From a bacterium (GTDB lineage Bacteria > Patescibacteriota > Minisyncoccia > Portnoybacterales > GWB1-42-6), in contig JAZDMV010000014.1 of the NCBI GenBank assembly GCA_043800535.1, positions 1 to 38,853 of the forward strand: 38,853 nucleotides of DNA. Reading direction: 5' to 3'. Position 1 is the first letter of the stretch. The number at the start of each line of letters is the position of its first letter. The position numbers were made by a program, and so were the translations under genes. Positions 2,203-31,523 of this stretch are shown piece by piece. The notes under the pieces are model-generated. The model was not told where the DNA came from. It saw only the letters and a list, made by a program, of their open reading frames with translations, and made no database searches.

Positions 2203-4116
2203 ATGGACTTAGAAGAAATTAAAAAACGGCTTTATACGGACAAGCCGGAACTGGGCGCGCGGCCGGAAGCGCCAAAGAAATATGAGCCGGGCTTCGGCCA
2301 GGCGGGCCAGGATAGCCAGGGGCAGGGAAGCTGGGAGAAGGAGCCGGAAAAAATTGCCGGTCCGGGCTTAAGCAGCAAGACAAAAAAGTGGATAAAAACC
2401 GCGGTTTTGGTGTTGGCTGGGTTAGCGGTTGCGGCGGTCGGCATCTGGTTTATATTTTTTCGCAGCTCATTTGACAGCAAAAAAGTTTCGGTCATTGTTT
2501 ATGGCCGCGACAGGGTGGTCAGCGGAGAGGAGGTAAGCTATATGGTGCGTTATCAGAACGGCACGAAAGTTGATCTGAAAAACGTGAAGCTGACTTTTAT
2601 TTATCCTGAAGGCAGTTTGCCAAAGGACACGCAGAATTTGACAACTTTGGGGGAGGCGCAGACAAGCATAGTCGGCGTTCCGGATCTGCCGGCTGGGCAG
2701 GAAGGCAGCATGGAATTTCGGGCCAGCTTAACCGGCCTGAGGGGCGAACAGAAGCAGGCCATTGCAAAGTTAAGCTATAATCCTGGCGGGGCGAGCTCCG
2801 AGTTTGAAAATGAAGGGGAATTTTTGAGCGAAATTTTTATGGTGCCCATTGTGCTTGATTTTGATCTGCCCGAAAGAATTGTCAGCGGCCAGCCTTTAAC
2901 CATCGGATTAAAATACCTGAACACTTCTGACGTTTCGTTCTCTGGCGTGACGCTAAGTATTGAATATCCTTCGGGATTTGATTTTAATTCTTCTTCCCCC
3001 GTTCCGGCCGAAGCAGAAAACAAATGGCAGCTTGCGGAGATCGGGCCGCGCGAGGAGGGAAAAATAATAATTTCCGGCGTGCTTTCCGGGCTTGAAGGAG
3101 AAGTTAAATCATTTAAGGCCAAAGCCGAGCAAAAGCAGGGCGAAATTGTCAAAACAGTTTCCGAAGGCCTGGCTTCAACTTCCATTTCCTTATCCCCGCT
3201 TTCCGTTGCGCTGACAGTTAACAACAGCCGCGATTATTCTGCCAATCCGGGCGAGACCCTCAACTACAAGCTGGCTTATCAGAATTCAACCGATGTCCAG
3301 ATCGGTCCGGTTTTCATTGTTGTCAAATTTGACAGCAAGGTTCTGGATTTTTCAACCTTAAAAACAAACGGGTCTTTCAGCAGCATGGACAATTCAATAA
3401 CCTGGAATGAATCGGTCTTGCGCCAGCTTCGCATGCTGCAGCCGGGCGACAAAAATACGATTGAGTTTTCTCTCCAGGTCAAGGAAAAAGAGGAGTTGCC
3501 TATTAAAAATTTCAGCGACAAGAACTTTCTTGTCGGCGTTTCGGCCAAAATTAATTCGGTCAATATTCCGACCTCGCTTGTCGGCACGCGGCTTGAAGGA
3601 AACGATTCGCTTTCAACCAAATTAAATTCCGTGCTTTTGCTTTCGGCCAAAGGATATTTTAAGGATTCAATTATGCCAAATTCCGGGCCCATTCCGCCCA
3701 CGGTCGGCCAGCAGACAACTTATACGATATATTGGCAGATCGTTAATTTGGCTAACGAAGCAGAAAACGTGGTGGTGGAAAGTTATCTGCCGCCTTATGT
3801 CAGCTGGCTTGGCCGGTTTGAGCCCCCTGACAGCGCCGTTAAATACGATAAAAACAGCGGCAAAATTACCTGGACAATAGGAAAACTGGCGGCCAACACA
3901 GGCATTCTTTCGCCTGTTAAGCAATTGGTTTTCCAGATTGCGCTTCTGCCAAACAGCAACCAGGTTGGCAGCGAGGTCGTGCTTGTAAAAGAATCGGCTA
4001 TCAGCGGGTTAGATGCTTTTACGGCGGCTTCCCTTAATGGCGTTGCCAAACAAATTGAAAGCGATCTGCCTGACGATTCATCCATGATTTATGGCGGCGG
4101 CAAGATCAGGCAATGA
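2203..4116 (+). CDS. Hypothetical membrane-anchored protein with a repetitive beta-rich extracellular region
   Basis: 637-aa ORF. It has a charged N-terminus, one TM helix (AVLVLAGLAVAAVGIWFIFF), then repeated ~100-aa segments with DUF11/CARDB-like character (fold assignment is my inference). Confidence 0.8.
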   Translation: MDLEEIKKRLYTDKPELGARPEAPKKYEPGFGQAGQDSQGQGSWEKEPEKIAGPGLSSKTKKWIKTAVLVLAGLAVAAVGIWFIFFRSSFDSKKVSVIVYGRDRVVSGEEVSYMVRYQNGTKVDLKNVKLTFIYPEGSLPKDTQNLTTLGEAQTSIVGVPDLPAGQEGSMEFRASLTGLRGEQKQAIAKLSYNPGGASSEFENEGEFLSEIFMVPIVLDFDLPERIVSGQPLTIGLKYLNTSDVSFSGVTLSIEYPSGFDFNSSSPVPAEAENKWQLAEIGPREEGKIIISGVLSGLEGEVKSFKAKAEQKQGEIVKTVSEGLASTSISLSPLSVALTVNNSRDYSANPGETLNYKLAYQNSTDVQIGPVFIVVKFDSKVLDFSTLKTNGSFSSMDNSITWNESVLRQLRMLQPGDKNTIEFSLQVKEKEELPIKNFSDKNFLVGVSAKINSVNIPTSLVGTRLEGNDSLSTKLNSVLLLSAKGYFKDSIMPNSGPIPPTVGQQTTYTIYWQIVNLANEAENVVVESYLPPYVSWLGRFEPPDSAVKYDKNSGKITWTIGKLAANTGILSPVKQLVFQIALLPNSNQVGSEVVLVKESAISGLDAFTAASLNGVAKQIESDLPDDSSMIYGGGKIRQ

Positions 4117-4120
4117 TCGT

Positions 4121-5359
4121 ATGTCCAAAATTATAAAAAAAATAGGAAAAGCCGGCGGTCGCGCCGGCCAGTTGCGAACAAGACGGGGGGTTCTCAAGAC
4201 CCCTTTTTTTATGCCGATCGCGACGCGCGGCGCGGTCAAAAATCTGACGCCAGAGGAGCTTAGGGAACTGGGTGCGGAAATTATTTTGGGAAACACGTAT
4301 CACTTATGGCTGCGGCCGGGGTTGGAAGTAATAAAAAGATCAGGTGGCCTGCACGAATTTATGCATTGGGATGGTCCGATCCTGACGGATTCTGGCGGGT
4401 TCCAGGTTTTTTCGCTGGGTGGAAGAGCTGGAAAGGCGCGGGGACAAAATTTTTCTTCTGTGGAACTCGCCCCGCAAGACGCGGGGCTCAAACAGTCCTC
4501 GTGCGAAAAATTTGTCCCCGTGCCTTTTAGTAGTCATGTAAGAATAACTGATGCGGGAGTAGAATTTCGTGATCCCGCGGACGGAAAAAAATATTTTTTG
4601 ACACCGGAAAAAGCAATTGAAATACAGCTGGCGTTGGGCTCGGACATTATTATGGTTTTGGACGAATGCCCGGCGTATCCGGCAACCCGCAAAGAGGCCG
4701 AGCAAGCGGTTGTGCGGACAACGAGATGGGCAGAGAGATGCAAAAAATATTTTGCAGCTCAGATTAAAAAATTAAAAATAAAAAGCAAGAAACCGCTATT
4801 GTTTGGAATAATTCAGGGAGGAATTTATAAAGATCTGCGTCAAAGAAGTGCAAACGAATTGTTAAGAATTGGTTTCGACGGCTACGCCATCGGCGGTGTG
4901 GCGGTGGGCGAGCCAAGAAAATACCTGGCTAAAGTGCTTGGCTGGGTTTTGCCGTTGCTGCCGCAGGACAAACCGCGCTATCTGATGGGGTTGGGGAAGC
5001 CGGAAGAAATAGTCAGGGCTGTGTTATCCGGCATTGATATGTTTGACTGCGTTATTCCGACCAGAGAAGCGAGGCACGGACGCATTTATAAATTCCAAAT
5101 TCCAAAAAACAAGATCCAAACAAATTTCAAATTTCAAACGAGAAAGGCAAAATTTTACGAGACCCTGCAAATAATGAATTCAAAATTTGCAAAAGATATG
5201 CGGGCCCTCGATGAAAATTGTTCCTGCTATGCCTGCCAAAATTACAGCCGCGCTTATATTAATCATCTTTTCAAGATCAAAGAAAACCTTGGGCTGCGGC
5301 TGGCCACCATGCATAATCTTAGATTCTATCTGGATCTGATGACAAGATTGAGAGATTAA
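4121..5359 (+). CDS. tgt: Queuine tRNA-ribosyltransferase (with two in-frame insertions)
   Basis: TPFFMPIATRGAVK, LGNTYHL, LTDSGGFQVFSL, GYAIGG, and the zinc motif CSCYACQNYSRAYINHL. The ATG at 4121 lies 4 nt after the upstream stop, so I prefer it to the track start at 4091. Confidence 0.9.
   Translation: MSKIIKKIGKAGGRAGQLRTRRGVLKTPFFMPIATRGAVKNLTPEELRELGAEIILGNTYHLWLRPGLEVIKRSGGLHEFMHWDGPILTDSGGFQVFSLGGRAGKARGQNFSSVELAPQDAGLKQSSCEKFVPVPFSSHVRITDAGVEFRDPADGKKYFLTPEKAIEIQLALGSDIIMVLDECPAYPATRKEAEQAVVRTTRWAERCKKYFAAQIKKLKIKSKKPLLFGIIQGGIYKDLRQRSANELLRIGFDGYAIGGVAVGEPRKYLAKVLGWVLPLLPQDKPRYLMGLGKPEEIVRAVLSGIDMFDCVIPTREARHGRIYKFQIPKNKIQTNFKFQTRKAKFYETLQIMNSKFAKDMRALDENCSCYACQNYSRAYINHLFKIKENLGLRLATMHNLRFYLDLMTRLRD
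4439..4520. repeat. Nested palindromic element in frame inside tgt
   Basis: Outer arms cggggacaaaattttt (4439-4454) and aaaaatttgtccccg (4506-4520). Inner hairpin gccccgc-aagac-gcggggc (4469-4487). Confidence 0.8.
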
Positions 5360-5810: not shown

Positions 5811-7112
5811 ATGACCGACAATAACCTGATGGAAAAGATTGTCAGTTTGTGCAAACGGCGGGGTTTTGTGTATCCTGGTTCGGAAATTTACGGCGGGCTG
5901 CAGGGCTTTTATGATTTTGGACCACTGGGCGTAGAAATGAAAAATAATTTGAAAAAGTTGTGGTGGCGTTGGATGACGATAGAGCATGAAAATATCGTCG
6001 GAATAGACGGCGCAATTATTACCCATCCTAAGGTCTGGGAGGCCAGCGGCCACTTAAAAAGCTTTGTTGATCCCTTAACGGAATGTAAAAAATGTCATCA
6101 TCGTTTTAAAGCCGACGATCTGGAGAGCAACAAATGTCCTGACTGCAGCGGGGAGCTGACCGAGCCAAAAAATTTCAATATCTTAGTGCCGACCCAACTT
6201 GGAGTGATTGAGGGAGAAAAAACGGATGCTTATCTAAGAGGAGAGGCCTGCCAGACAATTTATCTGGATTTTTTAAATGTTGTTAATTCAACGCGGGTGA
6301 AAGTTCCGTTTGGCATCGTGCAGATCGGCAAGGCCTTCCGCAATGAGGTCACTCCGGGCAATTTTTTATACCGCCAGCGGGAGTTTGAACAATGGGACTT
6401 GCAATGGTTTACGCACCCTTGCCAAATGGACAAGTGGTTTGAATACTGGAAGCAGGAACGGATGGATTGGTATAAAAGCATTTTTACTCATCCGGAGAAC
6501 CTTGGTTTTTACGAACACAAAAAGCTGGCGCATTACGCCAAAAAAGCTTTTGACATTGAATATAGTGCTTCGCCTTTCGGCAACAAAGAAATGGAAGGGA
6601 TCCATTGGCGCGGGGATTGGGACCTTTCCGGGCACGGCAAGTATTCGGGCAAGGACCTGGGCTACATGGACCAAGACACTAAAGAAAAGTATATTCCATG
6701 GATCGTTGAGACGTCCGGCGGAGTTGACAGGACATTTTTGTTTCTGTTAATTGATGCCTACGCAGAAGAAAAAGACAGGATTGTTTTAAAACTGAATCCA
6801 AAAGTGGCGCCTTATAAAACGGCCGTATTTCCGCTCTTGGCAAACAAGCCGCCATTGGTGGAATTGGCGAAGAAGATATATGACGATCTTCGCAAGGATC
6901 CGCCAGCTGGCGGGATGGTGGCCTGGGATGATCGGGGCAATATTGGTAAGCGTTATTATTCGCAGGACGAAATTGGCACGCCGTTCTGCATAACAATTGA
7001 TTTTGACAGTTTGGAAAAAGGCGATGTCACGGTTCGCGACCGCGACACGACAAAACAGGAAAGAATAAAAATCGGGGACTTAAAGAGCTTTTTGGAGGAA
7101 AAGTTGAAATAA
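5811..7112 (+). CDS. glyQS: Glycine--tRNA ligase (dimeric alpha2 type)
   Basis: 433-aa ORF. KRRGFVYPGSEIYGGL.GFYDFGPLG and FRNE..PGNFLYRQREFEQ are typical GlyQS motifs. Confidence 0.93.
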   Translation: MTDNNLMEKIVSLCKRRGFVYPGSEIYGGLQGFYDFGPLGVEMKNNLKKLWWRWMTIEHENIVGIDGAIITHPKVWEASGHLKSFVDPLTECKKCHHRFKADDLESNKCPDCSGELTEPKNFNILVPTQLGVIEGEKTDAYLRGEACQTIYLDFLNVVNSTRVKVPFGIVQIGKAFRNEVTPGNFLYRQREFEQWDLQWFTHPCQMDKWFEYWKQERMDWYKSIFTHPENLGFYEHKKLAHYAKKAFDIEYSASPFGNKEMEGIHWRGDWDLSGHGKYSGKDLGYMDQDTKEKYIPWIVETSGGVDRTFLFLLIDAYAEEKDRIVLKLNPKVAPYKTAVFPLLANKPPLVELAKKIYDDLRKDPPAGGMVAWDDRGNIGKRYYSQDEIGTPFCITIDFDSLEKGDVTVRDRDTTKQERIKIGDLKSFLEEKLK

Positions 7113-11277: not shown

Positions 11278-12009
11278 ATGGGGACATTATACATCGTGGC
11301 TACGCCGATTGGCAATTTAAAGGATATCACCCTGCGGGCGCTGGAGGTTTTAAAGGAGGTTGATTTGATCGTCTGTGAAGATACGCGGCAGACCATAAAA
11401 CTGCTAAATCATTATAATATTTCAAAGCCGCTGGTCAGCTATTTTCAGCATAGTAAATTGTCAAAAATTGATTATATCGCAGAGCAATTGAAAAATGGTA
11501 AGAGCGTGGCTTTGGTAACTGATGCTGGCACGCCTGGCATAGCGGATCCCGGCGGAGTTTTGATAGATCAGTTGGTCAGTTCATCAGTTCATCAGTTTAA
11601 AACCGAAAAACCGACAGGGAGCGAAGCGACCGAAACTGATAAACTGATTATCACGCCGATTCCCGGTCCCAATGCCGCGGTTGCCGCCTTGAGCGTTTCG
11701 GGCTTTCCGGCGGATAAATTTGTTTTTATGGGTTTTCCGCCGCATAAAAAAGGGAGGAATAAATTTTTTGACGAAGTTGCGGCGGCAAAATATACTGTAG
11801 TTTTCTACGAATCAACGCACCGTATTTTAAAAACACTGGGGCAACTGAAAATGACTTTAAGCCTCGAAAGGCAAATAGTTATTTGCCGAGAACTGACAAA
11901 ACAATTTGAATCAATTTATCGCGGCACAGCCGAAGAAATTTTAAAGACTTTGGAAAACGATAAAAATAATCAGAAAGGGGAGTTTGTTATTGTCATAAAC
12001 CATGAATAA
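11278..12009 (+). CDS. rsmI: 16S rRNA (cytidine1402-2'-O)-methyltransferase
   Basis: GTLYIVATPIGNLKDITLRALEVL..DLI.CEDTR and TDAGTPGIADPG motifs. The track start at 11242 overlaps the promoter, so I prefer the ATG at 11278. Confidence 0.88.
   Translation: MGTLYIVATPIGNLKDITLRALEVLKEVDLIVCEDTRQTIKLLNHYNISKPLVSYFQHSKLSKIDYIAEQLKNGKSVALVTDAGTPGIADPGGVLIDQLVSSSVHQFKTEKPTGSEATETDKLIITPIPGPNAAVAALSVSGFPADKFVFMGFPPHKKGRNKFFDEVAAAKYTVVFYESTHRILKTLGQLKMTLSLERQIVICRELTKQFESIYRGTAEEILKTLENDKNNQKGEFVIVINHE
11576..11648. repeat. In-frame palindromic insertion inside rsmI
   Basis: Arm tcagttcatcagttcatcagttt (11576-11598) versus aaactgataaactgat (11633-11648), 15/16 complementary. It encodes about 23 extra residues (SSSVHQFKTEKPTGSEATETDKL). 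Confidence 0.7.
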
Positions 12010-13420
12010 GAAATTTTACGTCACAACTCCGATCTATTATGTCAACGACCGTCCGCATATTGGCCACGCCTATACCACCGTGGCGGTGGATGTTTTGTCG
12101 CGCTGGCATAAAAAGCAAGGCGAAAAAGTTTTTTTTATGGCCGGTACGGATGAGCATGGTGCAAAAATTGAGCAGGCGGCGGCAAAGAATAACCAAGACG
12201 TACAAAAATTCGTTGACGAAAAAGCACAGGCGTTCAAAGATGCGTGGCAGAAACTTAATATAGAATACGACAATTTTTTGCGCACGACTGATGAAGCGCA
12301 TGTAAAAGCGGTGCAGGCGGCGGTGCAGGCGGTCTATAATAAAGGGTTGATATATAAAGGTGAATATGAAGGGCTTTATTGTGTTGGCTGCGAGCAATAC
12401 AAATTTGAAGATGACTTGGTTGACGGCAAGTGCCGCGAGCATAATATTGAACCGCAGCTGATGAAAGAAGAAAGTTATTTTTTCAAACTTTCTGAATTTG
12501 GCAAAGTTTTGGAAGAAAAAATATCGTCTGACGAATTGGCAATTTTGCCGCAGGAGCGCAAAAACGAAATTCTGAATTTTTTGAGGAGCGGCTTAAAAGA
12601 TATTTCCATTTCGCGCAAAAACGTTAAATGGGGGATTCCCCTGCCTTTTGACGAGGAACAAACAATTTATGTTTGGATTGACGCCTTTTTGAACTATTTG
12701 ACGGGTTTGGGCTGGGATGGAAGTTTAGAGTTTAGAGTTAAAAGTGAAAAGTTAGAGTTTTTCCCGCCGGATTTACAGCTGATGTCCAAAGATATTTTGA
12801 GGGTGCACGCGACTATCTGGCCGGCTTTGCTTCTTGCGCTTGAATTGCCTTTGCCCAAAGAAATTTTTGTGCACGGCTATTTCACGATTGACGGGCAAAA
12901 AATGTCCAAATCCCTGGGGAACGTCATCTGGCCGGAAGAATTAGTTGAAAAATTTGGGGTTGACGGGGCGCGCTATCTTTTGATGTCATCACTCTTGCAA
13001 GGCCAGGACAGCGATGTATCCTGGGAAAAGCTGACAGAAAAATATAATGCAGATTTGGCCAATGGCTTAGGGAATCTGGTTTCAAGGGTCTTGACGTTAA
13101 GTGAAAAGTTAAAAGTGAAAAGTTCAAAGTCGGAGTCAAAAATTGAAAACATGGACGGATTTTTTGCCGAGATAAGGTTAAAAGAAGTTTTAGACGAAAT
13201 TTGGTCGCAGATTGCTTGGGCAAACAGATATATTGAAGAGAAGAGATTGTGGGAATTGGTCAAAATGGATCCCAAAGAAGGAGAGAAAGTTTTAGCCGAA
13301 CTTTTATCTTTGATCTCAGAAATCGGCGAAGCAATCGCGCCGTTCATGCCCGAGACTTCGGAGAATATAAAAAAGATGCTTGAAACCGGAGCGGCCGGAC
13401 CGTTATTCCCAAGAGTATAA
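12002..13420 (+). CDS. metG: Methionine--tRNA ligase
   Basis: The signatures PIYYVNDRPHIGHAYT and KMSKSLGN are present. The start overlaps the rsmI stop (ATGAATAA). Confidence 0.93.
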   Translation: MNKKFYVTTPIYYVNDRPHIGHAYTTVAVDVLSRWHKKQGEKVFFMAGTDEHGAKIEQAAAKNNQDVQKFVDEKAQAFKDAWQKLNIEYDNFLRTTDEAHVKAVQAAVQAVYNKGLIYKGEYEGLYCVGCEQYKFEDDLVDGKCREHNIEPQLMKEESYFFKLSEFGKVLEEKISSDELAILPQERKNEILNFLRSGLKDISISRKNVKWGIPLPFDEEQTIYVWIDAFLNYLTGLGWDGSLEFRVKSEKLEFFPPDLQLMSKDILRVHATIWPALLLALELPLPKEIFVHGYFTIDGQKMSKSLGNVIWPEELVEKFGVDGARYLLMSSLLQGQDSDVSWEKLTEKYNADLANGLGNLVSRVLTLSEKLKVKSSKSESKIENMDGFFAEIRLKEVLDEIWSQIAWANRYIEEKRLWELVKMDPKEGEKVLAELLSLISEIGEAIAPFMPETSENIKKMLETGAAGPLFPRV

Positions 13421-16902: not shown

Positions 16903-16931
16903 TTGAAAAAAAGGCAAAAGTGGGGTAGAGT
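16903..16931 (+). promoter_or_regulatory. Possible promoter for leuS
   Basis: TTGAAA (16903-16908), 17-nt spacer, TAGAGT (16926-16931). The ATG is at 16942. Confidence 0.35.
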
Positions 16932-16941
16932 AGAAATAATT

Positions 16942-19900
16942 ATGGAAAAGTATAATCCGCAGGAAATTGAGAAAAAGTGGCAGGAGTTCTGGGAAAAACA
17001 TCCTGAACTTTATTCTGCAAAAGAAGAAGACGGCGAGAAGGCGTATATTTTGGATATGTTTCCTTATCCTTCGGCAGACGGTCTGCATGCCGGCCACGTT
17101 GAAAGCTACACCGCAACGGACATTATTTCGCGGTATTTGAGGATGAAAGGAAAAAATGTTCTGCATCCGCAGGGCTGGGACGCTTTCGGCCTGCCGGCGG
17201 AAAATTTTGCGGTAAAGACAAAAACCCATCCATTAATCACGACCCAACGGGCAATCGCGAATTTTAAGAAACAGATGAACATGATGGGTTTGTCATATGA
17301 CTGGTCGCGGGAAGTCAATTCTTCTGGCTCCGATTACTATAAATGGACTCAATGGTTTTTCCTCCTGCTTTACAAAAATGGTCTGGCTTATAAGGGCAAG
17401 GCGAAAGTCAATTGGTGTCCCAATTGCCAGACGGTTTTGGCCAACGAACAGGCCGAGGGCGGGGTTTGCGACCGTTGCGGCACGCAGGTTGTGCAAAAAG
17501 ACCTGGAGCAATGGTTTTTTAAAATTACTGATTTTATCGAATCCTCCTTGGCTAAAGCTTCGGAAGGGCAGGGACGGAAAACTTCGGGGCTTCTTGACGG
17601 GCTGGATAATATTGATTGGCCCGAACATACAAAAGCGGCGCAGAGAAATTGGATAGGGAAGTCGGAAGGGTCACAGTTTAGAATGCAGGTTAAGGGAGCC
17701 GGTAAATTAAATGCAAAATATGATAAAGTTTTGTTGGCCACTAACAATTTAAGTAAAAAAGAAAGAGTAGAAAAACTGCTGGACAGCGCAGGTTTAAAAA
17801 TAGAGATTTTATTGCCCAAAGATTTAGGCATTGCGGAACAGTCTGCTGGCGAAGAAAGTGATTTATACGAAAATGCCAAAGAAAAGGCTCTTTTATACAA
17901 AGATAAAACCGATTTGCCTGTTTTAGGCCTTGATACTGGTTTTTTCATAAAAGGAGAGATAATCGATCCGGTTAAGGTTAAGCGCAATGCTCTTGCCGGA
18001 AAATCCGAGAAAGACTTAACCCAAAAGGAGATTGCGGAGCTCTTGCTCAATTATTATAGGAACATCGCGACAAAGAATGGCGGAGAAATAGAAGCATATT
18101 GGCAAGACGTGACGGTTTTAGGTTTACCTGACGGGAGAATTGAAACAGCGGGAGATAAGAGGGAGGTCATTTTAACTGATAAAGCCGTGGGAAAAGTTGA
18201 CATTTATTTTCCAGTGAGGTCTCTTTACAAGACAAAAATAACCGGCAAATATACGGCTGAGGAAAATAACGATGAACATTTATTAGGATTAAAACCTTTT
18301 ACGGATTCATTGATAAAGTTGCTTGCCGATCAATCATCTGAAGATTCTCTTAGGGTTTTTACCACTCGCCTGGATACGGTGTTTGGCATGACTTTTGCGC
18401 TGATCGCGCCGGAACATGATATTATCCAAAAATTAAAACCACAGATAGAAAATTGGGAAGAAGTCGAAAAATATATAGAGCAGGCAAAGAAAAAATCCGA
18501 GCTACAAAGAATGACAGAAGAAAAAGAAAAAACGGGTGTTGAATTAAAAGGCATAAAAATAGTTAATCCGTTTACCAAAAAAGAAATACCGCTTTTCGCG
18601 AGCGATTTTGTTTTGGCGCATTACGGCACCGGCGCGGTCATGGCCGTGCCGGGGCACGATTACAGGGATTATGACTTTGCCAAAAAATTCGGCTTGCCGA
18701 TTGTGGAAGTGATAAAAAGCAAGGGCGGCCAGTCATCAATAGAAAAGGAAGCATTTGTGGAAGACGGAGTATTGTCTAATTCGCGCGAATATGACCATAT
18801 GGCTTCAGACGAGGCGCGGGAAAAAATGACGCAGTGGCTTGAAAAAGAGAATATCGGTAAAAAGACTATAAATTATAAAATTCGCGATTGGTTGATTTCG
18901 CGCCAGCGCTATTGGGGCGCGCCGATCCCGATAATTTATTGTGATAAATGTGGTTCGTCAGGCTCACCACAAGTTATTCCTGTCCCAGAAAAAGATCTGC
19001 CGGTTCAGTTGCCCGATGACGTTGACTTTATGCCGACAGGCGAATCCCCTCTTGCGCGCTCAAAAAAATTTCAGGATGTTAAATGCCCCAAATGCGGGGC
19101 GCCTGCCAGAAGAGAATCAGACACGATGGATACTTTCGTCTGTTCAAGCTGGTATTATTTTCGTTATGCTGACCCGCATAACGAAAAGGAATTCGCGTCA
19201 AAGGGGCAGATAAAAAAATGGCTGCCGGTTAACCTGTATGTCGGAGGAGCGGAGCATACGGTTTTACACCTTCTGTATTCGCGTTTTTTCACAAAAGTTC
19301 TGCATAATCTTGGCTATATTGATTTTGACGAGCCGTTTTTAAAACTGCGGCATCAGGGAATTATTCTGGCCGAGGACGGCCAAAAAATGTCCAAATCTCT
19401 TGGCAATGTTATCAATCCGGATGACGTGGTAGCCCAATACGGCGCGGACGCTTTGCGGATGTTTGAAATGTTCATGGGGCCGTTGGAAGATATGAAAAAA
19501 TGGGATACAAAGGGAATAATTGGGATTTATAGATTTTTGGAAAAGACACGGGATTTTCTCCGCGTTTATATTGGTATATTTATTTCTGAGAAAGAGAAAG
19601 AAGATTGGATTGAAGGGGAAGGTGAAATTAGTAAAATTAAAACACCACAAAAAATAAAATCTCTTTTGCATAAATCTATAAAAAAAGTTACAGAAGACAT
19701 TGAGAATTTAAAATTTAATACGGCGATCAGCCAGCTAATGATTCTTAGAAATTCTTTTTATGAATTAAAAGAGGAGTGGCGTATTTTTAGTAAATCTCGG
19801 GGTGAAGTGATAGAAGGGCGAATTATAGAAAGAGCTGATTTTGAAAAATTTATATTGCTTTTAAGTCCTTTTGCCCCACATATATCAGAAGAAATTTGGC

Positions 19901-20163
19901 AAGAAGAATTAAAACATAATAATAGTATTTTTACCGAAAAATGGCCCGAATACGATAAAGATTTGGTTAAAGACGAAATAATTGAGCTGGTCATTCAGAT
20001 AAACGGCAAATTGCGCGATAAAATTTATGTGCCGGCCGATATTTCCGAAGAGGAAGCCAAATCGCAGGCGCTGGCCAGCGAAAAAATCAGATCCGCGCTT
20101 GGCGACAAAGAGCTAAAAAAAACGATTTTTGTGAAAGGGCGTTTAATAAATATAGTTATATAA
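16942..20163 (+). CDS. leuS: Leucine--tRNA ligase with a large internal insertion
   Basis: PYPSADGLHAGHVESYT (HIGH-type), CP1 entry VFTTRLDTVFG, KMSKSLGN. I prefer the start at MEKYNPQEIEKKW. Confidence 0.93.
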   Translation: MEKYNPQEIEKKWQEFWEKHPELYSAKEEDGEKAYILDMFPYPSADGLHAGHVESYTATDIISRYLRMKGKNVLHPQGWDAFGLPAENFAVKTKTHPLITTQRAIANFKKQMNMMGLSYDWSREVNSSGSDYYKWTQWFFLLLYKNGLAYKGKAKVNWCPNCQTVLANEQAEGGVCDRCGTQVVQKDLEQWFFKITDFIESSLAKASEGQGRKTSGLLDGLDNIDWPEHTKAAQRNWIGKSEGSQFRMQVKGAGKLNAKYDKVLLATNNLSKKERVEKLLDSAGLKIEILLPKDLGIAEQSAGEESDLYENAKEKALLYKDKTDLPVLGLDTGFFIKGEIIDPVKVKRNALAGKSEKDLTQKEIAELLLNYYRNIATKNGGEIEAYWQDVTVLGLPDGRIETAGDKREVILTDKAVGKVDIYFPVRSLYKTKITGKYTAEENNDEHLLGLKPFTDSLIKLLADQSSEDSLRVFTTRLDTVFGMTFALIAPEHDIIQKLKPQIENWEEVEKYIEQAKKKSELQRMTEEKEKTGVELKGIKIVNPFTKKEIPLFASDFVLAHYGTGAVMAVPGHDYRDYDFAKKFGLPIVEVIKSKGGQSSIEKEAFVEDGVLSNSREYDHMASDEAREKMTQWLEKENIGKKTINYKIRDWLISRQRYWGAPIPIIYCDKCGSSGSPQVIPVPEKDLPVQLPDDVDFMPTGESPLARSKKFQDVKCPKCGAPARRESDTMDTFVCSSWYYFRYADPHNEKEFASKGQIKKWLPVNLYVGGAEHTVLHLLYSRFFTKVLHNLGYIDFDEPFLKLRHQGIILAEDGQKMSKSLGNVINPDDVVAQYGADALRMFEMFMGPLEDMKKWDTKGIIGIYRFLEKTRDFLRVYIGIFISEKEKEDWIEGEGEISKIKTPQKIKSLLHKSIKKVTEDIENLKFNTAISQLMILRNSFYELKEEWRIFSKSRGEVIEGRIIERADFEKFILLLSPFAPHISEEIWQEELKHNNSIFTEKWPEYDKDLVKDEIIELVIQINGKLRDKIYVPADISEEEAKSQALASEKIRSALGDKELKKTIFVKGRLINIVI
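17725..18324 (+). other. Ham1/RdgB (ITPase)-like domain inserted in LeuS
   Basis: KVLLATNNLSKKERVEKLL, AGEESDLYENAKEKA, LPVLGLDTGFFI and KITGKYTAEENNDEHL line up with the RdgB blocks KVVLATGNVGKVRE, EETGLTFIENAILKA, LPAIADDSGLAV and GKTAAELTREEKSAISHR (recalled from memory). Confidence 0.5.
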
Positions 20164-20166
20164 AAC

Positions 20167-21030
20167 ATGAAATGGGAACAGCCAGAACAGAAATTTTCGA
20201 TTGAAGGACAATTTAATAATCCGGACATTATAGATCTCGGCGGCAAAAAGCTGGAAGTCGTAGACATCAAACCAGATATTCAAAAGACGGAAGTCCCAAC
20301 GATGTTAGTCCCGGGTTGGACGGCGACGCCAAAAACGTTTAAAGATAACATTCTTGATTTGGCGGAACTGAATAGGCGGGTGATTTCAATAAACGCGCCG
20401 CATGGCATAGACGTCTCCGAGCAGCTAGAAAATATTCCCGAGGCCGAATTAAGGAAAGTAGCCGCGATAGCAAAAGTTTTAGAAGATAAAGAAATAGATA
20501 AAATAGATATTGTCGCTCATTCAGAAGGAGGCCTTTACGGAACGATTGCCGCTACTCTCTATCCGGAAAAAATCAGGAATCTGATTTTAGTTGACCCAGC
20601 CAGCATGATAGGCAAAGATAATCCAAGGCGGCTTTCAACAGATTTTTCAATGGATTTTTTGAAGCAGGGAGTAAGAAGTATTAAAGACGGAGAAGCACGG
20701 AAGGCAGTTTTTAGACTGTCAAAGGAATCCGTCAAGGCGATGGTCAAAAATCCGATGCAAGCGGTTAAACAGGTATTCGCGATGTCTAATTCCGATATCC
20801 GCGGAATGTTGGAAAAATTAAAAAAACAAGGAGTTGGTATTTCTGTAATTCACGCAGTTGATGACAAAGCCTTTCCGATGGAGCGTATGCAAGAGATGGT
20901 CAATACTGACCAGGTTGATGGTTTTTATTCCATAAAAGGAACGCACAATGAAATCTTATTGAATCACAAAAGATGTTCAGAGCTTGCCGATCAAGCGCTT
21001 AGCGACTTGGAAAAGAAACAGAGAAGATAA
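20167..21030 (+). CDS. Alpha/beta-fold hydrolase
   Basis: 287-aa ORF. It has the nucleophile elbow VAHSEGG plus downstream Asp (HAVDD) and His (GTHNE). Confidence 0.75.
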   Translation: MKWEQPEQKFSIEGQFNNPDIIDLGGKKLEVVDIKPDIQKTEVPTMLVPGWTATPKTFKDNILDLAELNRRVISINAPHGIDVSEQLENIPEAELRKVAAIAKVLEDKEIDKIDIVAHSEGGLYGTIAATLYPEKIRNLILVDPASMIGKDNPRRLSTDFSMDFLKQGVRSIKDGEARKAVFRLSKESVKAMVKNPMQAVKQVFAMSNSDIRGMLEKLKKQGVGISVIHAVDDKAFPMERMQEMVNTDQVDGFYSIKGTHNEILLNHKRCSELADQALSDLEKKQRR

Positions 21031-23196: not shown

Positions 23197-23199
23197 ATG

Positions 23200-23283
23200 T
23201 GCCGCGGGAGAGAGTTGAACTCTCATGAGCGTGAGCTCATACGATTTTGAGTCGTACGTGTCTGCCAGTTCCACCACCGCGGC
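23200..23283 (-). tRNA. tRNA-Leu(CAA), class II with long variable arm
   Basis: Hand-folded: acceptor GCCGCGG/CCGCGGC, D arm GTG-GAACTGGCAGA-CAC, anticodon arm TACGA-CTCAAAA-TCGTA, variable arm TGAGC-TCAC-GCTCA, T arm GAGAG-TTCAACT-CTCTC, discriminator A. No CCA is encoded. Confidence 0.85.
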
Positions 23284-26449: not shown

Positions 26450-26495
26450 TTACTGTTTCCACGACACCGAAACTAACCTTTCGGTGTTTTTGATT
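26450..26495. repeat. 46-bp direct repeat, copy 2 (last 15 codons plus stop of the RSH gene)
   Basis: Identical to 25720-25765. Confidence 0.95.
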
Positions 26496-28180
26496 TTTTT
26501 CAATGCCGGGCAGGAGGCGCGATGAACAGAAACGCTGCGGTTAATGGCAACATAGCCTTGGATTGGGTCGCCAGGTTTTGGGTTGCAACATTTGGCAAGA
26601 TTGGTCTGAATATTTGTCTGTCCTTTAACCTCAATAATTGCAAACACCCCCGTTTTTAGCGGCGCGGGTTTGGGAATTGGTTTTGTTTCCGGTTTTTGTT
26701 CTTCCGGTTTTGTGGCCTCGGGTTCCTTGTGTTTTTTAAACCACTCCCTTATTTTGGCCTTGGCCACGTTTGTTTTAGCAAGACGCAGCCAGTCCTGCGA
26801 TGGTTTCTCTTCTTTTTTGGTGATAATTTCTACCATTTGGCCGTTTTGCAGCGCCTGGTCCAACGCCACCATCTTTCCTTCAACTTTTGCGCCGGCGCAT
26901 CTATGGCCCACAGACGTGTGAACGTGATAGGCAAAATCAAGCGGGGTTGCACCTTCGGGCAGATTGATAATGTCGCCGCGAGGCGTAAAAACAAAGATGC
27001 GGTCTTGAAAAAAATCAATTTTGAGCTGTTCAGGAAATTCTTTTGAGCCAGGCGGAAAATCTTCCTGCCATTTTTGCATATCCTGTATCCACTTGAGGTC
27101 TTTTTCCGGCGGCTTGGAAAAAAGGCGTTTTATATAGGCTTTCAGGCCCTTATGCTCGGAATAATACCAGTGGGCGGCAATGCCATATTCTGCCTGCTGG
27201 TGCATCTCAACGGTTTTTATCTGAAATTCCGTTATCTTGCCTTCGGGGCAAAAAACAGTCGTGTGAAGCGAACGATAGCCGTTTGGCTTTGGCAGGGCGA
27301 TGTAGTCTTTAATTCTGCCAGGCAGAGGCCGCCAGAGCTTATGGATGACGCCCATAGCGCCGTAACAGTCGTCGACGTCTTTGACAATAATGCGCAGCGC
27401 GACCAGGTCATATATTTTGTTCAGGTCCATATTATAGCGCTGGAGTTTTCTGTACAAACTGAAATATCGCTTGGCGCGGGAATGGATCTGGATAGGCTGG
27501 ATGTCCGCTTTTTTCATGGCTTTTTCAACGGTGGCCGTGATGCCTTTAAGATATTTTTCGCGCTTTTCATATTGATCGCGAACTTGGCTGACAAGCCATT
27601 TATATTCTTCCGGATAAACGATAGGAAACGCGATGTCTTCAAGTTGGCCCGAAATTTTGCGCATGCCGAGACGATACGCAACGGGCGCGTATATTTCAAG
27701 CGTTTCTCTGGCGAGACGTTTTTGTTTTTCCGGCTCAAACACCCAGACAGTTTTAAGATTTATCAGGCGGTTGACGAGCTTTATCAGAATGACGCGGATG
27801 TCTTTGGCCGTGGCCAATATTAGCTTTCTTAAATTTTCAATATCGCGCTGGGCGCCGCGGTGTTCGATTTTCCCGACGTTTGTCACTCCCTGAACGAGGT
27901 TAAAGATCTCATCGCCAAAAATTTTCTTGAATTGGTGTTCATCAACATCAACCCGTTCCAACGCCTCGTGCAGCAGGCCGGCAGCGATAACTATTGAATC
28001 AAGATGGATATCGGCAAGGGCGAGCGTAATTTCAAGGCAGTGGTCAAAAAGAAGCTGGCCGGAGAGGCGCTTCTGGTCGCCATAGATATTTTGAGCATAA
28101 TCAAAAGCGTGCCCAATGAGGTCAAAATTGAGCTCGGGATTAGCTTGTTTAATTTTGGTGAGAAACTGTTCTTTTCCCAT
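26450..28180 (-). CDS. Long RelA/SpoT homolog, (p)ppGpp synthetase with a degenerate HD domain, plus TGS
   Basis: Synthetase blocks RAKRYFSLYRK, DLVALRIIV, GYRSLHT, EFQIKT, GIAAHWYY. TGS block IFVFTPRGD..LP.GATPLDFAY.VH. The N-terminal HD region reads LLHEALER instead of LLHD..ED. Confidence 0.88.
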   Translation of the reverse strand: MGKEQFLTKIKQANPELNFDLIGHAFDYAQNIYGDQKRLSGQLLFDHCLEITLALADIHLDSIVIAAGLLHEALERVDVDEHQFKKIFGDEIFNLVQGVTNVGKIEHRGAQRDIENLRKLILATAKDIRVILIKLVNRLINLKTVWVFEPEKQKRLARETLEIYAPVAYRLGMRKISGQLEDIAFPIVYPEEYKWLVSQVRDQYEKREKYLKGITATVEKAMKKADIQPIQIHSRAKRYFSLYRKLQRYNMDLNKIYDLVALRIIVKDVDDCYGAMGVIHKLWRPLPGRIKDYIALPKPNGYRSLHTTVFCPEGKITEFQIKTVEMHQQAEYGIAAHWYYSEHKGLKAYIKRLFSKPPEKDLKWIQDMQKWQEDFPPGSKEFPEQLKIDFFQDRIFVFTPRGDIINLPEGATPLDFAYHVHTSVGHRCAGAKVEGKMVALDQALQNGQMVEIITKKEEKPSQDWLRLAKTNVAKAKIREWFKKHKEPEATKPEEQKPETKPIPKPAPLKTGVFAIIEVKGQTNIQTNLAKCCNPKPGDPIQGYVAINRSVSVHRASCPALKKIKNTERLVSVSWKQ

Positions 28181-28194
28181 GCGATTTCCTCCCT

Positions 28195-30303
28195 CTATTG
28201 AGAGACTTCATTGGCGGCTTTGTAATCGCAGTCTTTATTTGAGCATTTTATTCTATTTTTAACGTCAGTCACGAGTAAAGAGTTACATTTTGGGCAATGC
28301 TCGCCGGTTGGTTTATCCCATAAGGCGAAGTCGCATTCGGGCCAGCGCGAGCAGGCATAAAATATCTTGCCGCGGCGGGTCCGTTTTTCATTTATCTTGC
28401 CCTGGCCGCACTTGGGGCAGGCAACACCGGTTTGAACAGCGATATTTTCAGTATAGCGACATTTGGGAAATCCGGAGCAGGCATAGAATTTGCCGAAACG
28501 GCTGGCGCGTATGACAAGGGGCTGCCCGCATTTGGGACATATTTTATCAGTTGGTTCAGCCACATGCTTTTGTTTTTTTACCTCGTCATATTTTTGATTA
28601 AGATGTTCGCTGAACGGTTCATAAAACTCGCGGATGACTTCCTGCCATTTCTGCTGGCCTTCGGCGATCTCGTCAAAATCTTTTTCAATATGCGCGGTAA
28701 ATTTTATATCGACTATTTCAGGAAAATGTTCAACGAGCATGTCATTCACGGTCAGGCCGATGTCGGTCGGAAAAAACTTTTTCTGTTCGTCCTTTTGGAC
28801 GTAGTTTCGGTCCTGGATCGTGGAAATGATCGGGGCATAGGTTGAAGGTCGGCCAATGCCGTTTTTTTCCAGCTCCTTTATCAGGGTTGCTTCTGAAAAG
28901 CGGCCAGGCGGCTGGGTAAAATGTTGGGATGGCGTTAATTTTATTAATTCCAACGGGTCTTTTTCTTCTAGCGGCGGCAATTCCATTTCTTCGTATTTTA
29001 TAGGATACACCTTTAGGAATCCGTGAAATTTTATCATTGAACCGTTGGCGCGGAAGATATAATTATTTTTGTCACTCGCAACGACGCAAGACGCGGCAAT
29101 GTCTATAGTTGTTGAATCAAAGATGGCCTGGTTCATCTGCGAAGCAACAAATCTGCGCCAGATGAGATCATAAAGCTTTGTTAATCTGTCGCCGGGATAC
29201 TTTGGATTTTTGAGTTCGTCTTTTAAAACGTCGGGCGAATTTTGGGGGTTGGTCGGCCGGATCGCTTCATGCGCTTCCTGCGCGCCTTTTGATTTGGTTT
29301 TAAATTTGCGCAAAAAGCCTGCCCAATAATCCTGGCCGTAGCTTTTTATGATAAAATCTTTGGCAACAAAAAGCGCCTGGTCCGAAATGTTGAGCGAATC
29401 AGTGCGGTGGTAGGTGATAAAGCCGCTTTCATAAAGCGACTGGGCAAGCGACATTGTCAGCTTGGCCGAAAAATGCAGTTTCTGCCAGGCCGCCTGCTGA
29501 AGGGTGCTGGTTGTAAAAGGCGGGAAGGGATTTCTCTTGACCTCTTTTTTTTCTATTGCTGTAACTTGGTATTTGGCGCCTTCTAGATCTTTTAAAATTT
29601 TATCGGCATTTTCTTTGGTCTTTATGTCCAGCTTGCCGATAGCTTGGTCGCCTCTTTTTATGAGCGCCGCTGTAAATTCTTTTTCTGGCTGTTTACTGTT
29701 TTCTGTTAACTGTTTTTTGAGCAGCGCTTCGATGCTCCAGTATTCTTCCGGCTCGAAACTCTTTATTTCGCGTTCCCTTTCAGCTATCAGGCGCACGGCT
29801 ACTGATTGGACTCGGCCGGCCGAAAGACCTTTAGCAACTTTTTGCCACAAAAACGGTGAAAGCTTGTAGCCGACAAGCCGGTCAAGAATTCGGCGCGCCT
29901 GCTGGGCGTCAACCAGATCCATATCGATCCGGCGCGGATTTTTTAACGCTTCCTCAATGGCAGATTTTGTAATTTCGTGGAAAACAATTCTTTCTGTGGT
30001 TTTGGGGTCTAATTTTAAGACATGGCTCAAATGCCAGGAGATGGCTTCGCCTTCGCGGTCTTCGTCAGTTGCCAGGATTACTTTTGCTTTTTTCCCCAAC
30101 AATTTTTTTATTGGCGTTATTTTTTTTCTGGCAATTAAGGGCACAACATATTTTGGTTCAAAATTGTTTTCAACATCAATGCCAAGTTCTTTGCGCGGCA
30201 GGTCTCTGACATGGCCAAAAGAGGAAGTGACTGAATAGTCCTTCCCTAAAAATTTCTGGATCGTGCGGGCCTTGGTTGGGGATTCGACGATGATTAAATT
30301 CAT
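28195..30303 (-). CDS. topA: DNA topoisomerase I
   Basis: MNLIIVESPTKARTI..FLG..Y.V.SS.GHVRDLP (Toprim), the active-site region YITYHRTDS, and C-terminal CPKCG zinc ribbons. Confidence 0.93.
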   Translation of the reverse strand: MNLIIVESPTKARTIQKFLGKDYSVTSSFGHVRDLPRKELGIDVENNFEPKYVVPLIARKKITPIKKLLGKKAKVILATDEDREGEAISWHLSHVLKLDPKTTERIVFHEITKSAIEEALKNPRRIDMDLVDAQQARRILDRLVGYKLSPFLWQKVAKGLSAGRVQSVAVRLIAEREREIKSFEPEEYWSIEALLKKQLTENSKQPEKEFTAALIKRGDQAIGKLDIKTKENADKILKDLEGAKYQVTAIEKKEVKRNPFPPFTTSTLQQAAWQKLHFSAKLTMSLAQSLYESGFITYHRTDSLNISDQALFVAKDFIIKSYGQDYWAGFLRKFKTKSKGAQEAHEAIRPTNPQNSPDVLKDELKNPKYPGDRLTKLYDLIWRRFVASQMNQAIFDSTTIDIAASCVVASDKNNYIFRANGSMIKFHGFLKVYPIKYEEMELPPLEEKDPLELIKLTPSQHFTQPPGRFSEATLIKELEKNGIGRPSTYAPIISTIQDRNYVQKDEQKKFFPTDIGLTVNDMLVEHFPEIVDIKFTAHIEKDFDEIAEGQQKWQEVIREFYEPFSEHLNQKYDEVKKQKHVAEPTDKICPKCGQPLVIRASRFGKFYACSGFPKCRYTENIAVQTGVACPKCGQGKINEKRTRRGKIFYACSRWPECDFALWDKPTGEHCPKCNSLLVTDVKNRIKCSNKDCDYKAANEVSQ

Positions 30304-30304
30304 A

Positions 30305-30443
30305 AAAAGTTAAAAGTTTAAAGTGAAAAGTTAAAAATTGCAGTTTATAGTTTAAAGTTTTAAATATGCACTGCGCCGCGATATACCAAAACTTTTCATT
30401 TTTAATTTTAAACTTATGTATTAGCGCGTTAACGCGCTAATAC
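30305..30443. repeat. A/T-rich aaagt-type low-complexity repeat plus a 30-bp perfect palindrome at the dprA stop
   Basis: aagtgaaaagttaaaa (30321-30336) is identical to metG-internal 13099-13114. The palindrome is atgtattagcgcgtt/aacgcgctaatacat (30414-30443). Confidence 0.8.
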
Positions 30444-31523
30444 ATAGTTCATTCCTCCCAGATTTTTAATTTTTCCCTTCATCTCCATCAGGATCATTGT
30501 TGCGTTGACGGACGCGGTATTCATTTTAGTTTGTTCAACGATTTTGTCAATATGGGTTGGCTCGTCGTTCAGAATCTCTAAAATTTTTGCTTCCTCTTCG
30601 TTATCGGGAATGATCTGGCGGACCTGAATTTGTTCGCTTAAACTTTTTAGGTTTAATTCTTCCAGGACGTCATTGGTGTCGCAAACCAATTTTGCGCCCA
30701 TTTTTATCAGGTTATTGGGGCCGGCTGAATACGGCGAATAAATTGGTCCCGGAACTGCGAAAACCTCGCGGTTTTGTTCTAAGCTGTGTTTGGCAGTAAT
30801 CAGCGCCCCTGATCTTTCTTTGGCCTCTATAACTAATGTGCCAAGCGACAGCCCGCTGATAATTCTGTTGCGGGCGTGGAAGTGGTGTTTTAAGGCAGGA
30901 GAGCCAATGGGATATTCTGAAATAACGGCGCCTTTTTCGCTTATTTGTTGCGCCAATTTTCTGTTTGAAGGCGGATAAATGCTTGGGTCGTCAATGCCGG
31001 AGCCGACAACGGCGATAGTACGCCTGCTGTTTTGTAACGCTGCAAGATGAGCTAATGTATCAATGCCGCGGGCCAGGCCCGAAACGATGGTCAATCCGGC
31101 TTGAGCGATCTGGCCGGCCAGATGCGAAGTGACCTGCTGGCCGTAGGAAGACGGGATTCGCGTGCCGACAATGGCGAGCGCCTTTTCGTCCTCGGGGATA
31201 AGGTGACCCCTTACATATATAATAGCAGGCGGGTCGTATATCTCTTTTAAGAGCTTGGGATAATTTTCGTCCAGAATTGTCATGACACTGATGCCGTGCG
31301 TCTCTAATTTTTCAAGTTCTTTGTCCGGGTCAATTGTAATCCTTTGGGCGCATAATTCGTTGACGATATTTTCTTCCAGCCCGGCTTTTTGCAGGTCATA
31401 CTCGCTGGCACGCCACGCATCTTCGAGGCCGCCAAAATAATTAAGAAGCCGCTTTATCCTCTGCGGCCCGATATGCTCGTGGAATTGATTGAAAGCGATA
31501 AAATATTTTGCCTGGGGATGCAT
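30429..31523 (-). CDS. dprA: DNA-processing protein DprA (Smf)
   Basis: SGLARGID..AH, the HF.ARNRIISGLS..TLV.EA..RSGALITA block, and REVFAVPG. Confidence 0.9.
   Translation of the reverse strand: MHPQAKYFIAFNQFHEHIGPQRIKRLLNYFGGLEDAWRASEYDLQKAGLEENIVNELCAQRITIDPDKELEKLETHGISVMTILDENYPKLLKEIYDPPAIIYVRGHLIPEDEKALAIVGTRIPSSYGQQVTSHLAGQIAQAGLTIVSGLARGIDTLAHLAALQNSRRTIAVVGSGIDDPSIYPPSNRKLAQQISEKGAVISEYPIGSPALKHHFHARNRIISGLSLGTLVIEAKERSGALITAKHSLEQNREVFAVPGPIYSPYSAGPNNLIKMGAKLVCDTNDVLEELNLKSLSEQIQVRQIIPDNEEEAKILEILNDEPTHIDKIVEQTKMNTASVNATMILMEMKGKIKNLGGMNYVLAR

Follow-up and report, generated by a model that had tools for sequence, protein, structure and literature searches.

What does the leucyl-tRNA synthetase (LeuRS) gene leuS of this contig encode besides a LeuRS? 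In the 38,853-nt stretch of DNA analysed here (the window; all positions are given in its numbering on the forward strand) the product of this gene, LeuS, carries a long additional segment, and an earlier reading made from the letters alone (the sequence-only reading) had proposed that this segment is a Ham1/RdgB-like domain. Profile and structure searches bear this identity out, with Ham1/RdgB/ITPase proteins as the best and full-length match, and they place the segment inside the CP1 editing domain of the synthetase. The explanation which we consider probable, though far from certain, is that of a bifunctional polypeptide, in which an intact LeuRS displays an autonomous, probably active house-cleaning nucleoside triphosphate (NTP) pyrophosphatase that came from an adjacent upstream gene.

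The flanks of the insert fix its position. From the end of the motif WIGKSEG, which begins at 17650, to RVFTTRLDT, which begins at 18352, there are 227 residues (17671-18351), against the approximately 225 counted by the sequence-only reading between WIG(K/R)SEG and the entry of CP1; in insert-free relatives the same two motifs lie 23 residues apart, start to start. Aligned with the Thermus thermophilus LeuRS (2V0C/1H3N), the query is split exactly between chain residues 238 and 239 (after PVEG and before KEVRIPVFTTRPDT), which gives a net insertion of 213 aa at 17698-18336, and in the insert-free P0012 the empty site reads GISGIDKKLGVFTTRLDT. The features of the host gene are as follows.

16942 to 20163, + strand: leuS coding sequence, 1073 aa from the ATG at 16942 (open reading frame, TIGR00396 match, identical to the database protein P0005)
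17086 to 17097, + strand: HIGH signature (HAGH) of the class I catalytic site, with H49, G51 and H52 near-invariant across 61 relatives
17650 to 17697, + strand: left flank, WIGKSEG and the first CP1 beta-strand (SQFRMQVKG), aligning up to T. thermophilus G238
17698 to 18336, + strand: nested segment of 213 aa, found neither in solved LeuRS structures nor in insert-free orthologues
18337 to 18843, + strand: remaining CP1 editing domain, from the second hairpin strand and TTRLDT onwards (PF13603, E 8e-59)
19384 to 19398, + strand: KMSKS signature, columns K815-S819 near-invariant across the 61 relatives

The right flank of the insertion aligns to the T. thermophilus enzyme from residue 239. In the full-length model the left flank forms a strand (residues 240-251) and strands are predicted on both flanks; the boundary between T. 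thermophilus residues 238 and 239 we take to lie in the editing domain, at the turn of its first beta-hairpin. The sequence-only reading was right in seeing a domain inserted in LeuS, and its placement just before CP1 has to be corrected to the turn of the first CP1 beta-hairpin. CP1 itself hosts a further insertion, so that the nesting is two levels deep.

The fold of the insert was assigned by several searches. On its own, the insert passed the gathering cut-off of PF01725 (Ham1p_like) marginally and over its N-terminal half only (23.3 bits, cut-off 22.5), and a single-sequence search of the PDB gave weak matches only (E 0.08). A search of 5.8 billion proteins returned four free-standing proteins of 201-209 aa, all with PF01725, which are 37-50% identical to the insert over about 90% of its length (best E 1e-50; P0001 at 50%). 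We combined the insert, these four proteins and the inserts of five other LeuRS into one alignment (A1), whose profile matched Ham1/RdgB entries only in the PDB, down to E 2e-7, and all ten members matched PF01725, the best at 4.3e-12. AlphaFold run on A1 gave a model with pLDDT 88.5 and pTM 0.82, in which the Ham1 fold covers residues 19-218 of 227. With this model Foldseek matched E. coli RdgB (1k7k) at E 5e-11 over 208 columns, and ITPases of bacteria, archaea, Plasmodium and human over about 205 columns; the target-normalised TM scores reached 0.73 at most (Ham1 4bnq). The structural and the profile search could each have spoken against a Ham1 identity, and both supported it. Judged by profiles and by the predicted structure, the insert belongs to the Ham1 fold family as a divergent member.

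Two other assignments were tried and rejected. For the Maf family we obtained TM scores of 0.36-0.43 over about 155 columns, a phmmer E of about 0.7 and no Pfam Maf match; as for an intein, the Ham1 fold fills the insert and Pfam gave no intein match.

The host enzyme appears to be undamaged by its guest. Its open reading frame on the + strand is unbroken to 20163 from either the TTG at 16903 or the ATG at 16942; the in-frame TTG is probably not the leuS start, as homologues and P0005 begin at the ATG. LeuS scores 965.7 bits against TIGR00396 (leuS_bact; cut-off 548.4) and has the full usual set of Pfam domains, including the anticodon-binding domain. In CP1, the columns of T474, T475, R476, D478 and T479 and those of the GTGAVMAVPxHD block are near-invariant among the 61 relatives. 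The full-length AlphaFold model, one of the checks named by the sequence-only reading, was confident (pLDDT 84.7, pTM 0.71) and retained the Ham1 secondary structure inside the LeuRS; compared with the E. coli and Thermus LeuRS by Foldseek it gave TM scores, normalised to the target, of 0.75-0.83. By sequence and model, the host is a complete and intact bacterial LeuRS.

An insert of this kind could also arise as an assembly chimera, or as two or three separate genes read as one. Public read material offers this idea some room, since a single run held 9% of the sampled words, only as an identical contig of 154 bp inside the insert, to which the read material for this contig is limited. However, both junctions are in frame and free of stop codons, and the architecture recurs in other genomes. 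The same insert stands at the same site, with no gaps, in P0006, P0008, P0098, P0007, P0009 and P0110, at 56-66% identity to the insert of the window, and in all seven close LeuRS align gaplessly with the insert at this site. Overall, cases at the CP1 hairpin (site A) comprise at least 24 other LeuRS, whose host-core identity runs from 87% down to about 46%. Independent assembly in several samples points the same way: P0008 is found on five contigs of independent assemblies, one of them 487 kb long. The contig of P0006 (1054 aa, 79% identical to LeuS) is syntenic with the window, with a deformylase and a membrane protein gene ahead of leuS, and the syntenic neighbour L003 carries the insert too. 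The closest insert-free orthologue, an 824-aa LeuRS of Candidatus Portnoybacteria whose core is 80% identical, likewise lies on a syntenic contig. A chimera or a misread set of genes is effectively refuted, and neither the assembly artefact nor the frameshifted separate gene considered by the sequence-only reading is what we see.

Substitution patterns give a further view of the insert. Between the window and L003 its nonsynonymous divergence (pN) is 0.22 and its synonymous divergence (pS) 0.82, the latter saturated, while pN of the flanks is 0.055-0.11. At the level of sequence this indicates that the insert is under purifying selection, yet evolves faster than its flanks.

We then compared the active site with that of E. 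coli RdgB, using a reference sequence identical to 1K7K at 197 of 197 positions. The hhalign alignment of the family profile with RdgB covers the N-terminal half only, alignments of hidden Markov models to canonical members ending mid-domain; the C-terminal correspondence was drawn by MAFFT through intermediate sequences and by Foldseek coverage, without a residue-level structural alignment. On this basis all four ordered Ham1 blocks listed by the sequence-only reading align with RdgB, the three N-terminal ones by hhalign (95% probability) and the C-terminal one by MAFFT via the intermediates. The features of the nested domain are listed here.

17725 to 18324, + strand: Ham1/ITPase-fold core, from KVLLATNN to LIKLL (PF01725, AlphaFold model, Foldseek and the free-standing homologue P0001)
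17737 to 17766, + strand: motif 1, ATNNLSKKER; T24, N26 and K29 correspond to RdgB T8, N10 and K13
17851 to 17886, + strand: motif 2, EESDLYENAKEK; E61, N68 and K72 correspond to RdgB E41, N49 and K53
17929 to 17940, + strand: motif 3, LDTG; D88 corresponds to RdgB D69, and the first Asp (D68) is now Leu
18211 to 18228, + strand: PVRSLY, a lineage motif replacing the FGYDP base-pocket loop (family alignment)

By hhalign, RdgB T8, N10, K13, E41, N49, K53, D69 and G71 thus fall on insert residues T24, N26, K29, E61, N68, K72, D88 and G90, with RdgB D68 on L87 and RdgB E16 on R32. The triphosphate site of RdgB is formed by Lys13, Lys53 and Arg87, and the Asp corresponding to RdgB D69 is the general base in Maf enzymes (PMC3899018). 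Of these positions K29, K72 and D88, together with E61, are present in each of the 30 nested copies, and N26 in 29 of them; R105, which is one column off Arg87 in the MAFFT alignment, is kept in 25. The RdgB counterparts of N26, K29, E61, K72 and D88 serve in triphosphate and Mg2+ binding and in catalysis. Position 87, the first acidic residue of the DD/ED pair, varies across the lineage (D, L, G, I, F or N). In the family alignment FGYDP has become DIYFPVRSLY, of which P181 is found in all 30 nested copies and Y186 in 27, and SHR is absent, no HR being seen. The two changes read earlier from the sequence, DD to LD and FGYDP to DIYFP, are therefore both there.

The changes at D68, FGYDP and SHR are common to the free-standing relatives too, and those in the base pocket are for that reason lineage-defining and not a consequence of nesting. 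Since neither D88 nor the Lys, Glu and Lys residues vary, a loss of catalysis in the nested domain seems unlikely from the alignments. Because the base-pocket motifs FGYDP and SHR are replaced, we suggest that the domain is probably an active NTP pyrophosphatase with an altered base specificity.

The opposite possibility is that catalysis has been lost and that the domain serves as a structural or nucleotide-sensing module, modulating the movement of CP1 or the handling of tRNA. The missing first Asp (D68 to L87), FGYDP and SHR would fit such a role, as would the position on the mobile CP1 domain and scores far under the RdgB equivalog cut-offs. Against this, the lost residues are equally absent in the free-standing relatives, the domain is also nested in unrelated hosts, and the Lys/Glu/Lys/Asp set is invariant in all 30 nested copies, which one would hardly expect unless the domain is catalytic or at least binds triphosphate. 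We regard such a module as improbable. Of the two outcomes left by the sequence-only reading, a catalytically changed and a purely structural domain, the former holds in so far as the base pocket is remodelled, and the latter agrees poorly with the invariant D88 and Lys/Glu/Lys residues, only the first Asp being lost.

To see how far the arrangement extends, we turned to an exhaustive profile search, which gave 183 cluster representatives at E <= 1e-10, the best 150 of which were examined and include many long proteins. At least 17 of these 150 are LeuRS, most of them with the Ham1-like domain at the site used in the window. In P0150 and P0257 it follows CP1, in P0230 and P0185 it stands in tandem behind NUDIX domains, and in P0157 it is found at the C-terminal end of the LeuRS, overlapping the end of the match to the anticodon-binding domain. 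Hosts other than LeuRS are the alanyl-tRNA synthetase (AlaRS) P0188, which also holds a guanylate kinase and a serine hydrolase, the two TopA proteins P0154 and P0167, the former with a NUDIX domain and a LAGLIDADG intein as well, the Cbf5/TruB protein P0163, the class II aminoacyl-tRNA synthetase (aaRS) P0207 and the TrxR-like P0181. Two-domain proteins also occur, joining the Ham1-like domain to NUDIX or to a PF06821 hydrolase. In these searches the Ham1-like lineage is almost confined to Patescibacteria.

The LeuRS of this group are open to more than one guest. Three insertion sites recur: the CP1 hairpin, which takes the Ham1-like domain; a site inside CP1 at about profile position 146, which takes NUDIX or an aminoglycoside-nucleotidyltransferase-like domain; and a site just after CP1, which takes a PF06821 alpha/beta-hydrolase or a HAD domain. 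Many combinations occur, up to one LeuRS of 1610 aa with four inserts (two NUDIX, one Ham1-like, one HAD). Nested enzymes at the two further sites were seen in P0007, P0009, P0035, P0102, P0110, P0185 and others. In locus L046 (Candidatus Gracilibacteria) a Ham1-like match lies downstream of the N-terminal part of a LeuRS, in a frame that is apparently broken under table 11; the break could come from the UGA=Gly code of that lineage, and the locus would then be another nested case.

Surveying LeuS orthologs for the insert, as the sequence-only reading had proposed, gave a divided answer: the insert recurs in many Patescibacteria LeuRS, and it is patchy, being absent in close sisters. In a neighbour-joining distance tree of the LeuRS core, from which counts of gains, losses and transfers are not derivable, insert states are scattered among close sisters. 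Thus P0009 has two inserts and P0028 none at 85% core identity, and the LeuS of the window and P0006 are sisters of the insert-free P0011 and P0012. The difference between empty and filled copies of site A is clean, and the loop in which it falls varies in length even among insert-free orthologues. The inserts of P0009 and P0110 are 85% identical and their host cores 57%, which suggests, from sequence comparison, that the nested segment was transferred between divergent leuS genes. Compared with L003, the insert of the window has a synonymous divergence of 0.82 and the leuS flanks one of 0.48-0.61, and its G+C content at third codon positions (GC3) is 0.36, that of the rest of the gene 0.40-0.52; both figures hint that insert and host gene may not have exactly the same history.

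Such traits raise the question of a selfish or neutral in-frame cassette, spreading by recombination and spared from loss by frameshift or nonsense mutation inside an essential gene, with no benefit to the cell. It would account for the patchy presence among close sisters (P0009 and P0028), for the P0009/P0110 pair, for the higher synonymous divergence and lower GC3 of the insert, and an intein does stand beside nested domains in one TopA. However, at the insert borders we found no terminal repeats or target-site duplications, only a chance-level 10-nt repeat that is not conserved in L003, and there is no Hint or endonuclease domain. The active-site residues are strongly constrained, the free-standing orthologues are ordinary cellular genes, and the divergence of host and insert is broadly correlated (r = 0.70). 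We consider a benefit-free cassette very improbable.

The free-standing copies were followed among species representatives of GTDB, all labelled as or resembling Patescibacteria, at 36 loci that each come from a different assembly. The Ham1-like domain is nested in LeuRS in 12-13 of these genomes and is encoded by a free gene of about 205-220 aa in about 22. Upstream of leuS and on its strand, at distances of 66 bp to 2.3 kb, we found five of the free genes; in the tree they group inside the nested clade or next to it, the other free genes forming a separate clade. The LeuRS of the five belong to three different deep LeuRS clades, which also contain nested forms. From these copies upstream of leuS in five genomes, branching as they do, we suggest that the lineage arose beside leuS. 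Beside the other free genes stand genes for NUDIX proteins, PF06821 hydrolases or NT5C-type HAD proteins; the NUDIX and PF06821 neighbours have homologues among the domains nested in LeuRS, AlaRS and TopA, and the NT5C neighbour gave no match to the nested domains.

A free Ham1-like gene stands immediately upstream of leuS in L004 (835-4007), L013 (2334-3451), L012 (3104-7955) and L019 (2369-6759). In L012 and L013 a gene of the Peptidase_S66 family (LdcA/MccF) directly precedes it, and the LeuRS of L019 carries a PF06821-like hydrolase, not a Ham1 domain, at the insertion site of the window.

The linkage to leuS makes functional coupling a serious rival, if in our judgement an unlikely one. 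In that case the substrate of the nested Ham1-like, NUDIX, serine-hydrolase and HAD domains would be a nucleotide relevant to the synthetase, and the LeuRS would be a scaffold for local clean-up or self-protection; candidates are side products of the diadenosine tetraphosphate (Ap4A) type, non-canonical ATP analogues and inhibitors mimicking the aminoacyl-adenylate. LeuRS is by far the commonest host, with three to four of its sites colonised, and an AlaRS and a class II aaRS are among the others. In three separate LeuRS clades the free form stands just ahead of leuS, where chance would place it on the same strand within 2.5 kb in about 0.1% of genomes of about 1 Mb by a rough estimate, and the leuS-linked copies form a lineage of their own. 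The S66 gene that directly precedes the Ham1-like gene in L012 and L013 could be read in the same sense, but S66 enzymes mostly act in cell-wall recycling. Neither do the TopA, Cbf5/TruB and TrxR-like hosts perform adenylate chemistry; many free copies are nowhere near leuS; close LeuRS sisters, presumably functional, do without the insert; and adjacency alone eases local rearrangement into leuS, with no functional link needed.

A broader version of this idea, which we hold to be doubtful, is that a small set of nucleotide-hydrolase genes (Ham1-like, NUDIX, PF06821 serine hydrolase, HAD/NT5C, nucleotidyltransferase, guanylate kinase) shuttles in Patescibacteria between a free cluster, often by leuS, and surface loops of essential enzymes, in frame, and that the nested enzymes cooperate with the synthetase. 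The loops would be those of LeuRS (at least four sites), AlaRS, class II aaRS, TopA and Cbf5/TruB. Adenylate-like inhibitors, by-products of the Ap4A type or damaged ATP analogues would then be destroyed at the point of use, with LeuRS as a multi-enzyme nucleotide-sanitising scaffold.

For the bifunctional enzyme that we prefer, we picture the turn of the first CP1 beta-hairpin as the seat of an entire Ham1/ITPase-fold protein (about 205 aa), which would there cleave a nucleoside triphosphate to the monophosphate and pyrophosphate as a house-cleaning reaction. Its substrate would probably be another non-canonical nucleotide and not inosine or xanthosine triphosphate (ITP/XTP). The domain would most likely pursue its own chemistry, the tether to LeuRS serving as constitutive co-expression, and the CP1 region may simply be where the protein tolerates an insertion most readily. 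Its autonomy is argued from the nesting at other LeuRS sites and in unrelated hosts, and from the unrelated hydrolases (NUDIX, PF06821, HAD, nucleotidyltransferase) found in the same LeuRS loops, together with the variable length of the site-A loop. The lineage would have begun as a gene immediately upstream of leuS and have moved in more than once, or with later losses and exchanges.

Several observations count against this explanation and should be noted. The NCBIfam equivalogs of RdgB/HAM1 are far from reached, TIGR00042 giving 20 bits against a cut-off of 145.35 and PRK14824, the best of the PRK148xx models, 34.9 against 267. With the first Asp, FGYDP and SHR not conserved, both activity and substrate are guesses. 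The best 150 profile matches include at least 23 hosts of the nested domain, of which 17 are LeuRS, a strong linkage to leuS which could mean functional coupling. The AlphaFold output came without inter-domain geometry, and the public-read material does not reach the junctions of this contig.

Among known systems, the RdgB/Ham1/ITPA proteins (PF01725; 1K7K, 2Q16, 4BNQ, 2J4E) share the whole-length fold, the N-terminal motifs and the size of about 200 aa with the insert, which differs from them in being nested in another enzyme, in the loss of D68, in the replacement of FGYDP by (D)IYFPxRSLY, in the absence of SHR and in its sub-equivalog score. The Maf proteins (YhdE/YceF; PMC3899018) belong to the same superfamily, and the xDTG of the insert, with no preceding acidic residue, resembles their GADT; house-cleaning of modified nucleotides is an idea that fits the insert as well. 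However, they are the poorer structural match (TM 0.36-0.43 against 0.6-0.73 for Ham1) and Pfam assigns the insert to Ham1. Inteins in essential genes are likewise in frame, cleanly present in some close relatives and missing from others, and show signs of lateral exchange, whereas the insert has no Hint fold, splicing motif or homing endonuclease, and is a conserved metabolic enzyme presumably kept in the mature protein.

Synthetases with extra enzyme-like domains are also known, one example being the NCBIfam exception family NF040702 ('isoleucine--tRNA ligase, N-acetyltransferase domain-containing'), in which a synthetase is likewise joined to an accessory domain. The MetRS of Mycoplasma penetrans has tandem N-terminal ancillary domains as terminal appendages (PMC13215547); this too is an enlarged synthetase of a small genome, but there the extras are terminal and here a whole enzyme sits within the hairpin of the editing domain. 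The classical nesting of CP1 in LeuRS has the same domain-in-domain layout, while here CP1 is the host. In a survey of domain insertions from 2026 (PMC13114784), PF13603, the editing domain of LeuRS, appears as an insert only and in no case as a host.

Full-text searches of the literature gave no description of Ham1, NUDIX or hydrolase domains nested in LeuRS, nor of such nesting in bacteria of the candidate phyla radiation. The Ham1 family and aaRS with accessory domains are already known, and the nesting in CP1 was not found described. This agrees with the sequence-only reading, to which no such fusion was known, although the case is not unique but widespread in Patescibacteria. To our knowledge, the architecture of bacterial LeuRS is regarded as settled by specialists on aaRS, and a second enzyme nested in it is unexpected.

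The inserts demonstrate how much cargo the CP1 region tolerates, which is useful for protein engineering. They also strongly connect a divergent Ham1-like lineage, NUDIX and PF06821 hydrolases to leuS, both by Rosetta-stone fusion and by gene neighbourhood, so that the substrates become a testable question. Further, they point to a general strategy of the tiny-genome, salvage-dependent Patescibacteria, that of carrying accessory enzymes in frame inside essential genes, and bear on how tiny genomes keep weakly selected functions.

The remainder of the window was inspected for related features. No second Ham1-like gene was found within the window, its TopA (28195-30303, - strand) has no insert, and no extra domains were seen in the genes at 709-1992 (-), 5811-7112 (+), 12002-13420 (+), 26450-28180 (-) and 30429-31523 (-), namely two class II aaRS, MetRS, a RelA/SpoT homologue and DprA. 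Starting 4 nt past the leuS stop, an alpha/beta-hydrolase gene (20167-21030, + strand, 287 aa, PF00561, nucleophile motif HSEGG) was considered as the free counterpart of the hydrolases nested in LeuRS and rejected, as it shows no BLAST similarity to them and is of the PF00561 type, not PF06821. The queuine tRNA-ribosyltransferase (TGT) gene at 4091-5359 (+ strand) encodes 422 aa, somewhat long for this family, and its Pfam profile is matched in two stretches; the protein may carry a small insertion of its own. The sole tRNA gene in the window is a tRNA-Leu(CAA) at 23199-23283 (- strand), 3 kb downstream of leuS. Overall, genes for translation and housekeeping are numerous in the window.

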